From the sequence record PP925821.1: DNA of 45,057 nucleotides. One strand, written 5' to 3'. Position numbers and translations under genes: made by a program. The DNA comes from Escherichia phage Eeyore. Shown in pieces: positions 43,619-45,057 of the stretch (position 1 is the first letter of the stretch; the number at the start of each line of letters is the position of its first letter). Under the pieces are notes generated by a model. The model was not told the origin of the DNA and did not search any database. It saw nothing but the letters and a program-made list of their open reading frames with translations.

Positions 43619-44905
43619 ATGCTTTATAACACTGGCACTATCGCTATTAACGGAAATACCGCAACCGGCACTGGCACAAACTGGACGGCACCGGCCAGCC
43701 AGGTTCGCGCTGGACAGACGATTATCGTCATGTCTAACCCGGTCCAGATGTTCCAGATTTCATCCGTGAACAGCGCCACATCGATGACGGTTACGCCAGC
43801 TGCTTCCCCGGCGCTGAGCGGCCAGAAGTACGGCATTCTGGTATCAGACAATATCTCGGTCGATGGTCTGGCGCAGGCGATGTCTCAGCTCATCAAAGAG
43901 TATGACGAGAATATCGGTGCGTGGGAGACCTTCGCTACCACATCAGCAAATCAGAGCATTACCGTGACCATCAACGGCACCGCCGTAACCATCCCTGGCA
44001 TCGGGAAACTGGCGCAGAAAGGGAGCAACGGTGCGCTTGCAATCGCTGACGGCGGGACCGGGGCAACGAAGGCAGAAGACGCTCGCACAAACCTCGGTTT
44101 AGGAAGTAGTGCGTTGAAGAATTTGCAAAGCACAACCGAGGACAAAACGTCTGGGGCTGTTTTGCAGGTTGGAGCCTTCGGATTAGGTGCGGAGGCTCCA
44201 ACGATCCCTGCTAATGATGCGAATCAGATTGTTGGCTATAACGGTTTTGTTTCCGGTGCAGGGGCTCCTGGAACGAACTGGGTAAACGTGTACGGTCCCA
44301 TGCTCGTTATGAGGAGAATCAGCGCGGTTGCTCAGGTCCAGGTAAACTCTGTTGGTGGATTGGCATCACGCTACGGTCTGGTTACGGATATGACCGTTAA
44401 CAATGGCGGTGCATGGTGTGTTCACTGGCATGACAGAAACACAACGGTGGACTCAAGCGGGTTCATAAAACGGGCTTCGCCTATCGTTAAGTTGTTTTTT
44501 GATGGAAGCTACGAAACAAATGATGAATCTGAGGGGTGCACAGTACGCCGTATCGAAACAGGCCAATATCTTATAGAAGGATGTCATGGCCTGAATGCTG
44601 AGGCTATTTGGGGCGGGGTTGATGGCGGTTTTGAGATACCCTCAGACCGTAATAAACAGCCGCTGATATGGCTGGATTATGAGGTAAATGCTGACGGATC
44701 GGTGCTGGTAAAAACCTATCACCGCACACACCCGCAAGCGCCAGCGTTCGCCAGGAACGAGCTGCAGGGCATCAACGATGGCGACCCGGTCGACATTCCC
44801 CGCGATCAGTTTGTGTCCGTGCGCGTCGAAATGCCTGGCGATTCTCTGTACAACCAGAAACTCAGAGCCGTAGAGCTGATCCTTGCTGCTGATGAAGGTG
44901 AATAA
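43619..44905 (+). CDS. Side tail-fibre protein, expressed copy (constant N-terminal ~160 aa + cassette 1)
   Basis: 428 aa, SD GAGGT; gix-like site A encodes NLGLGSSA at ~aa 160; C-terminal ~140 aa near-identical to inverted cassette 4 (1346..2083), both ending DEGE-stop followed by a gix-like site. Confidence 0.8.
   Translation: MLYNTGTIAINGNTATGTGTNWTAPASQVRAGQTIIVMSNPVQMFQISSVNSATSMTVTPAASPALSGQKYGILVSDNISVDGLAQAMSQLIKEYDENIGAWETFATTSANQSITVTINGTAVTIPGIGKLAQKGSNGALAIADGGTGATKAEDARTNLGLGSSALKNLQSTTEDKTSGAVLQVGAFGLGAEAPTIPANDANQIVGYNGFVSGAGAPGTNWVNVYGPMLVMRRISAVAQVQVNSVGGLASRYGLVTDMTVNNGGAWCVHWHDRNTTVDSSGFIKRASPIVKLFFDGSYETNDESEGCTVRRIETGQYLIEGCHGLNAEAIWGGVDGGFEIPSDRNKQPLIWLDYEVNADGSVLVKTYHRTHPQAPAFARNELQGINDGDPVDIPRDQFVSVRVEMPGDSLYNQKLRAVELILAADEGE
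44086..44113 (+). repeat. gix/hix-like recombination site A inside the expressed tail-fibre gene
   Basis: cacAAACCTCGGTTTAggaagtagtgcg; 13-nt core identical to the Mu gix core AAACCTCGGTTTA (recalled); inverted counterpart at 2117..2146. Confidence 0.6.
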
Positions 44906-44926
44906 AGGTCGGTTTGGGAGACAGCG
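44900..44926 (+). repeat. gix/hix-like recombination site B, directly after the tail-fibre stop
   Basis: aaaggtcggtttgggagacagcgcc; with flanking bases (44897..44919) it is a perfect 23-nt inverted repeat of 1332..1354. Confidence 0.6.
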
Positions 44927-45057
44927 CCACAGCCAACTTCGGAAGCCTCGAGATCGGAGCCAAAAAACCTTCTTCAGCAAGCTTTGTTGATTTCCATTTT
45001 CTTGGCACCAACGACTATGACGCGCGCATCCTGTGTGGTGGTAATTCTAATGGTGCC
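44902..45057 (+). CDS. Tail-fibre alternative cassette 2, 5' part (promoterless, no start codon; runs off the window end)
   Basis: Frame 1 open from 44902 to the window end, no ATG; begins IKVGLGDSAT, the junction peptide encoded at all four sites; window length 45057 is divisible by 3, so it is in frame with the ORF at position 1. Confidence 0.5.
   Translation, partial: MKVGLGDSATANFGSLEIGAKKPSSASFVDFHFLGTNDYDARILCGGNSNGA

Follow-up and report, generated by a model that had tools for sequence, protein, structure and literature searches.

A probable multiple-inversion switch with four alternative ends for the side tail fibre of Escherichia phage Eeyore

Invertible DNA that swaps the C-terminal ends of fibre proteins is known from several phages as a means of varying host range. 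In the Mu G, P1/P7 C and e14 P systems two sites, with the crossover at the border between the constant and variable parts of the fibre gene, exchange two alleles, each of which has its own U/U' (tfa) chaperone gene. The Min system of p15B, described by Sandmeier, Iida and Arber in 1992, reportedly has six sites, many more isomers than the locus studied here and a P1-like, myovirus-type fibre operon with segments that carry assembly genes. In this work we describe the side tail-fibre gene (stf) of Escherichia phage Eeyore (sequence record PP925821.1), whose full 45,057 nucleotides we call the window. The locus is, with high probability, a multiple-inversion switch of the Gin/Cin/Min type, by which a temperate lambda-like phage of Enterobacter/E. 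coli would vary its side tail fibre. It resembles p15B, as that system is reported, in its invertase, a serine enzyme of the Hin/Gin/Cin/Pin family, in having more than two sites, placed in both orientations, and in its ATG-less 3' cassettes for one constant 5' part; unlike p15B, it has four sites, belongs to a lambdoid side tail fibre and includes no assembly gene. The principle is already known from Mu, P1 and p15B and there is no new mechanism here. The main differences from these classical cases are the lack of chaperone genes and the lambdoid side tail fibre itself.

The closest described system is FRphi, a lambda-like Enterobacter phage reported in 2026, in which long reads show three isoforms of the fibre C-terminus at roughly 50/25/25 and in which deletion of gin locks the locus; of these isoforms, one infects the host of the phage, with the receptor FhuA being needed for infection, and the authors point to related loci with up to six paralogues (PMC13418256). 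Judged by its description, this 'tail fiber protein shufflon' resembles the Eeyore locus in being carried by a lambda-like temperate Enterobacter phage, in joining a constant N-terminus to alternative C-terminal cassettes and in having a gin-type recombinase downstream (PMC13418256). It differs in its three cassettes at about 50/25/25, against four in the window at a predicted 33/33/17/17, and in its fliC-tldR cargo; no fliC-tldR region lies between the invertase of the window and its phage attachment site (attP), and we therefore rejected the idea that the window is FRphi itself.

Escherichia phage LLS (PQ299149.1; PMC12315714) has the same order of genes: J, a 100-aa, a 213-aa and a 120-aa protein (the last on the minus strand), stf, an inverted cassette, an invertase and a dinI-like gene. 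Its tail region is 79.8% identical to ours in DNA and its invertase 68% identical, and its annotated repeats IR-L (AAACCTCGGTTTGGGAAGTAGCGCG) and IR-R both hold the crossover core. However, LLS has two cassettes and two sites, and switching was proposed there from sequence only. In enteropathogenic E. coli E2348/69 a P2-like prophage with three inverted repeats was shown by sequencing to exist as four coexisting variants with three C-termini (PMC4272514); it differs from Eeyore in its P2-type myovirus fibre, its three sites and its other cassette families. The R64-type shufflon also swaps the C-terminal ends of one protein by multiple inversions, and inverts only, despite its direct pairs of sites. 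That said, it uses a tyrosine recombinase (Rci) and 19-bp sfx sites to vary a pilus adhesin (pilV), whereas the sole recombinase at the Eeyore locus is a serine invertase, the phage integrase (4021..5214) lying beside attP. The window is a shufflon only in the loose sense of PMC13418256.

The side tail-fibre open reading frame of Eeyore (43619..44905, plus strand, 428 aa) matches the phrog_1591 family 'tail fiber protein' (E = 1.5e-175) and carries the Pfam domain PF25670 at its C-terminus. It consists of a constant part, which ends in the first of four crossover sites, and the cassette that is currently fused to it. The constant part and the sites are:

43619..44095, plus strand: constant part of stf (Sc), residues 1-159, ending ...ARTNL
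44082..44107, plus strand: site A, CTCGCACAAACC TC GGTTTAGGAAGT, core TC at 44094-44095, in codons L159/G160
44897..44922, plus strand: site B, GGTGAATAAAGG TC GGTTTGGGAGAC, core TC at 44909-44910, with the stop codon TAA of cassette 1 (44903-44905) in its left half
1329..1354, minus strand: site C, GGTGAATAAAGG TC GGTTTGGGAAGT, with the stop codon of cassette 4 in its left half
2123..2148, minus strand: site D, ATCTATAAAACG TC GGTTTAGGAAGT, 66 bp upstream of the invertase start codon

These are 26-bp sites, each with two imperfect 12-bp half-sites around an identical, asymmetric 2-bp core, TC; two lie in each orientation and every one is in frame at the start of a cassette. They fit the layout that has been tabulated for Mu, P1, e14, p15B and E. 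coli EC958 prophages (PMC4134206), and have the form ...AAACC NN GGTTT... of the Mu, P1/P7 and e14 sites. The central 13 bp of site A (AAACCTCGGTTTA) are identical to those of Mu gixR read on its other strand, TTATCCAAAACC-TC-GGTTTACAGGAA. The four sites have TC followed by GGTTTRGGA in common, and no other match to it exists in the 45 kb: a search for TCGGTTTRGGA with at most one mismatch returned four matches in the window, all of them exact and all of them crossover sites, compared with about 0.04 exact matches expected from base frequencies and an average of 1.35 in shuffles with one mismatch allowed. The right halves are strong, and their GGT TTR GGA encodes the G-L-G with which each cassette begins. 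The left halves are weaker, reading AAACC, AAAGG or AAACG at the core, and are of different origin: the constant region for A, the end of cassette 1 for B, the end of cassette 4 for C and a fixed flank beside the invertase for D. Homology at the DNA level to the stf genes of HK97, HK639, mEpX2 and others breaks off at about 44105-44113, that is, at site A; the HK97-type genes have the constant part in common with Eeyore, carry a gp53-like tip instead and have no switch.

An earlier note on this DNA, made from the letters alone, had recognized sites A and B as gix-like. It rightly put A inside the coding sequence near residue 160, and B at the stop codon, with coordinates that need a small correction: 44086..44113 overlaps site A and lies 4-6 nt to its right, and 44900..44926 is a few nucleotides off site B. 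Since both are on the plus strand the two are direct repeats, as the note had it. This direct pair is not an oddity of the gene; it is the expected layout of a multi-site inversion system.

The 3.1-kb interval from A to D is taken up by four cassettes, in segments of 815, 1487 and 794 bp:

44096..44905, plus strand: cassette 1, 269 aa, fused to the constant part; linker, about 83 variable aa, PF25670
44911..45057, plus strand: cassette 2, 5' part, ATG-less, running off the record end
1..687, plus strand: cassette 2, 3' part, 277 aa in total, with a C-terminal Peptidase_S74 intramolecular chaperone
684..1340, minus strand: cassette 3, silent and inverted, 218 aa, Peptidase_S74
1346..2134, minus strand: cassette 4, silent and inverted, 262 aa, PF25670, 54% identity to cassette 1

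All four are open from the GLG codon to a stop, with no internal stop codon or frameshift in any of them, so that one constant part faces more than two alternative 3' cassettes and more than two sites in both orientations. A search of NCBIfam found no family for any cassette. Neither Tfa nor Caudo_TAP had a match in the A-D interval, and the invertible DNA contains no tail-fibre assembly gene; in contrast to the Mu, P1 and e14 type, there is no U/Tfa gene for each fibre end.

The similarity between cassettes 1 and 4 that had been pointed out earlier survives pairwise alignment (BLASTP E = 3e-95, 54% identity overall). To call their last 140 aa near-identical was an overstatement: these are homologous, with 109/140 residues (78%) identical and 77.8% identity over 432 nt of DNA. 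The N-terminal 100 or so residues were said to be divergent, and this applies to a stretch of about 83 aa that is unalignable. The first 25-30 aa are a conserved linker (GLGSSA...QVGAFGLG), so that both cassettes are tripartite, with linker, variable stretch and PF25670 domain.

Cassette 2 is split by the ends of the record. As the earlier note had seen, an ATG-less frame after site B (K-V-G-L-G-D-S-A) stays open to base 45057 and runs on in frame from base 1. It ends with TAG at 685-687; counted from the GLG codon this is 277 aa without a stop. E. coli prophages with 88% identity run across the same junction. So does a contig of a public assembly (L003, discussed below), whose cassette 2 shows 0 differences in 834 nt. 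The attP site, which is the last 46 nt of tRNA-Pro (3839..3884, minus strand), adjoins the integrase gene (4021..5214, minus strand); ARAGORN found no tRNA gene in the window. With attP beside the integrase and the junction continuous in related genomes, the window is the excised, circular form of the phage genome. The record begins at an ATG inside cassette 2, and this has created a false 228-aa open reading frame at 1..687. Related prophages (L002, L003) adjoin yejM, and L002 directly follows tRNA-Pro.

Beside site D lies the recombinase, with a candidate enhancer in its coding region:

2214..2768, plus strand: serine DNA invertase, 184 aa, with Resolvase and HTH_7 domains and Ser9 present
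2232..2299, plus strand: candidate recombinational enhancer, with the Fis-type 15-mers GTATCAACTTTTGAC and GGTCAGAATGTGACC, corresponding to nt 19-86 of the invertase gene

The protein falls in the range of about 180-190 aa and has an N-terminal catalytic domain with the active-site serine (Resolvase, 3e-45) and a C-terminal helix-turn-helix (HTH_7, 8e-13). Its residues 2-182 align end to end with Mu Gin (PDB 3uj3, E = 1e-64), including Ser9. Its identity is about 60% to Cin of P1/P7, which is typical of its relation to the Mu, P1/P7 and e14 group, and 83-84% to the proteins of Yersinia phage vB_YpM_44 and Salmonella phage SJ46, with that of LLS in between. Downstream of it are dinI, attP and int. 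In most Hin/Gin/Cin/Pin/Min systems an enhancer with two Fis sites lies in cis within the 5' part of the invertase gene, and the putative enhancer of Eeyore occupies the position known from Mu, P1/P7 and e14. In P7 cin the enhancer is annotated over the same interval, nt 19-86, and two 15-mers of the form G-N13-C, at nt 22-36 and 71-85 of the Eeyore gene, align with the motifs of gin, cin and the LLS invertase. By this analogy 2232..2299 would be a Fis-dependent recombinational enhancer.

Is there evidence that these sites recombine? The exact 428-aa fibre protein has no record in the gene-position index, and we therefore traced isomers via the 213-aa protein upstream and the invertase. An identical invertase is recorded for one public assembly, GCA_012072505.1 (labelled E. 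coli), and two of its contigs, 53 (L003) and 86 (L013), are from the same phage as the window. L003 differs from the window by 0, 1 and 0 nt in cassettes 2, 3 and 4. Nevertheless, the order of its cassettes differs: cassette 4 lies forward, directly 5' of cassette 2, and cassette 3 adjoins the invertase flank. At the new borders are two hybrid sites, C-left/B-right and D-left/C-right, both joined at ...GTC/GGTTT..., where the slash marks the junction. Only reciprocal exchange at the core would produce such sites, and the same phage thus exists as a second isomer that arose by site-specific exchange. Provided that cassette 1 is present, the L003 arrangement is one of 12 isomers predicted below, two inversions from the window. 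L013 shows 0 differences in 464 nt of the constant part and ends 11 nt before core A, and L003 begins 19 nt after the GGT of cassette 4; assemblies break in this way where the population is mixed. With the invertase, the four sites, the hybrid sites and the cassette fusions described below, the proposal of the earlier note, that gix-like crossover sites and alternative C-terminal cassettes make up an invertible fibre gene, is supported.

The broken contigs raise the question of whether the cassette order in the Eeyore record is itself a path that an assembler threaded through a mixture of isomers, and thus corresponds to no existing molecule. Short-read assemblies of this phage do break at the sites, and the record was opened inside cassette 2 at an internal ATG. 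Yet the arrangement is internally consistent, with four proper pairs of left and right half-sites, and its layout of two forward and two inverted cassettes recurs in two complete chromosomes (L005 and L006). We regard such an artefact as extremely unlikely, and any threaded path would still be one of the 12 isomers, which leaves the conclusion about the system unchanged.

L003 also bears on another objection, namely that the locus is a static mosaic. The 'sites' would then be a conserved coding motif, ...ARxNLGLG..., at module boundaries and the cassettes relics of homologous recombination, with no active switch. The motif is indeed not confined to invertible genes: GGTGA..AR.NLGLGS occurs twice in tandem in the unrelated fibre protein of phage SU10 (PDB 7z47_D), the homology to non-invertible HK97-type stf genes stops at it, and there are locked relatives without an invertase (L009-L012 and L015). 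Against this stand four intact cassettes with an intact Gin-like invertase adjoining them, and a second isomer of the same phage with reciprocal hybrid sites in otherwise identical DNA and contigs broken at the sites. In addition, the left half of site D (GCAATCTATAAAACG) is kept beside the invertase in L003, L005 and L006; L002 has it with a single change. This half-site is non-coding and yet conserved across loci, a conservation for which a coding motif cannot account. We consider a static mosaic very improbable.

Relatives of the locus confirm that the constant part has been joined to different ends. Its fusion to cassettes other than cassette 1 is found in nature with an end like cassette 2 (P0003), like cassette 3 (P0025) and like cassette 4 (L009); in the last case the tip is 90% identical to cassette 4 and homology switches at the crossover site. 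Two complete Enterobacter chromosomes, CP056393.1 (L005) and CP081105.1 (L006), carry two forward and two inverted cassettes; the order of genes is the same, the sites are conserved and an invertase is present. The E. coli prophages L001 and L002 have three-cassette versions. A search with the constant region also returned many Enterobacter 'partial' tail-fibre proteins of 158-163 aa that end at site A, some of which represent more than 100 member sequences, which indicates that contigs often break there.

Locked derivatives that have no invertase are found in L009-L012 and L015. In these loci (e.g. L009 8096..9563) the upstream 213-aa protein is identical, the constant part continues into a cassette like cassette 4, and a piece of 72-80 aa left over from an inverted PF25670 cassette comes next. 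From their sequences they appear to be switches that have decayed to a locked state. A different loss is seen in P0007 (241 aa, from a Logan contig of 1290 bp), where the constant part is followed, beyond GLG, by a match to the window open reading frame 2854..3057, which is antisense to dinI; the cassettes and the invertase are gone and the fibre is truncated. In the chromosome of Enterobacter cancerogenus CP081105.1 (L006 8145..9959) a gene for a 604-aa AIPR (abortive-infection) protein sits between convergent cassettes, inside the invertible segment. This defence gene would therefore flip along with the fibre cassettes.

Shortened, locked loci of this kind are also what one might expect if the invertase used the direct pair A/B for deletion, excising cassette 1 as a circle and leaving the constant part irreversibly joined to cassette 2. 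A and B do have the same orientation and an identical core, and the enzyme belongs to the resolvase/invertase superfamily. However, it is established that the Fis-enhancer invertasome of Hin, Gin and Cin acts strongly in favour of inversion and against deletion; cassettes are retained in the multi-site systems p15B Min and FRphi; and the complete genomes L005 and L006 keep the direct pair followed by the inverted pair. Furthermore, the locked locus L009 has a junction of A-left with cassette 4, an impossible product of A x B deletion. An enzyme that deletes cassette 1 has, in our judgement, an extremely small probability, and direct pairs would be expected to persist given the known behaviour of Fis-dependent invertases.

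Returning to inversion, we propose that the switch works as follows. A constant 5' part of 159 codons ends in site A, and four promoter-less, ATG-less 3' cassettes would serve as its alternative ends. The serine invertase, probably with host Fis bound to the enhancer in its own 5' coding region, would cut at the 2-bp core TC and flip the segment that lies between any two sites of opposite orientation, starting with A x C, A x D, B x C or B x D and continuing from the products. A single inversion would suffice to bring cassette 3 (A x C) or cassette 4 (A x D) to the expression site. Cassette 2 would need two, e.g. a B x C exchange followed by one between A and whichever site then borders cassette 2. 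The direct pair A/B belongs to the shuffling scheme: it is what would let cassette 2 get to the expression site.

When inversions between opposed sites only are enumerated, 12 isomers result, every one of which has exactly one cassette at the expression site; this is cassette 1 or cassette 4 in four isomers each, and cassette 2 or cassette 3 in two each. If forward and reverse rates are equal, the isomers would be equally frequent at equilibrium, which predicts 33/33/17/17 for cassettes 1/4/2/3. In a population, each of the PF25670 cassettes (1 and 4) may be the expressed one in 1/3 of cases and each of the S74 cassettes (2 and 3) in 1/6. The same enumeration for three cassettes gives four isomers in the ratio 2:1:1, which matches the roughly 50/25/25 of FRphi and the four variants with three C-termini of the E2348/69 prophage, the number of variants there being equal to the number of isomers computed.

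Several points weigh against the switch as we have described it. The isomer evidence comes from another assembly, and inversion was not directly observed in this genome; the assembly behind L003 could moreover be a three-cassette variant. The left half-sites are weak, their symmetry with the right half extending to only 5-6 of 12 positions, and sites B and C read AAAGG rather than AAACC at the core. The enhancer was assigned from its position and two degenerate motifs alone. Finally, an AlphaFold2 model of the full 428-aa fibre as a monomer, built with an alignment of 33 sequences, is too poor to inform on cassette folding: its mean predicted local distance difference test score (pLDDT) is 57.6, its predicted template modelling score (pTM) is 0.29, and it is confident only for the N-terminal 70 aa. 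A poor score is expected where a trimeric fibre is folded as a monomer.

What do the alternative ends do? We infer that the cassettes differ in the receptor specificity that they give the phage. Of 33 aligned homologues, 27 were counted as distant, and the mean identity of these 27 to the window is 23% over residues 191-272 and 78% over residues 273-412, the PF25670 domain. This pattern of conservation fits the suggestion, made in the earlier note, that receptor specificity would map to the divergent stretch of each cassette. It is conceivable, although we hold it only tentatively and rather doubt it, that the layout of the sites sets the odds of expression and, separately, that the conserved PF25670 domain is not the receptor binder. 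Its role could instead be to help the fibre fold or trimerise, as a built-in module, or to serve as the platform on which a second fibre protein docks. The docking role is conceivable because fibre residues 141-407 match the C-terminus of a chain of 786 aa from phage SU10 that is named 'Putative tail fiber' (PDB 7z47_D), so that the homologous end sits on a SU10 tail-fibre chain; the long fibre of SU10 is made of a proximal and a distal protein (PMC9509320). The invertible DNA has no assembly gene; cassettes 2 and 3 each encode an S74 intramolecular chaperone of their own, and the conserved PF25670 forms the end of cassettes 1 and 4.

The stf gene is preceded by the gene for a lambda-J-like host-specificity protein (38572..42231), by a pair of small, conserved genes and by a lipoprotein gene on the opposite strand. 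The latter (43130..43492, minus strand), between the tail genes and stf, encodes 120 aa with a signal peptide ending in LLAGC, belongs to phrog_25729 and is conserved in all relatives. In the E. coli relatives L001 and L002 this slot is occupied by the exclusion lipoprotein gene cor, and because of this shared position the 120-aa gene may be a superinfection-exclusion gene. The gpI-like and gpJ-like tail genes are separated by an inserted open reading frame of 185 aa (38049..38606, plus strand), which has a lipoprotein-like signal (...FISGC) and to which no family was assigned; a 185-aa gene is called at the same gpI/gpJ position in L009, L012 and L013. Residues 2-97 of the fibre itself (43619..43910) match the N-terminal regions of three phage depolymerases of known structure (PDB 7lzj, 7vyv and 7vz3; E of about 1e-12 to 1e-13), which suggests that the N-terminal 97 or so residues are a virion-attachment adaptor domain common to the fibre and the depolymerases. 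Just 5' of the stf start codon, at 43552..43610, are GATC-rich palindromes (GATCAAT, ATTGATCG and AAACGATCG) that overlap a weak promoter-like match and may be a regulatory or Dam-sensitive element. Scans for promoters and terminators around stf and the invertase gave nothing above shuffled expectation.

In summary, a temperate phage of 45 kb fits four putative receptor-binding options into 3.1 kb of DNA, without chaperone genes. The analysis gives exact coordinates for the sites and a testable isomer ratio of 4:4:2:2. It also explains why draft assemblies of Enterobacter and E. coli very often break at about residue 160 of the fibre, and why the silent cassettes are annotated as separate 'tail fiber domain' proteins. 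If PF25670 does have a role in folding or docking, this would explain why switches of this type need no tfa genes.

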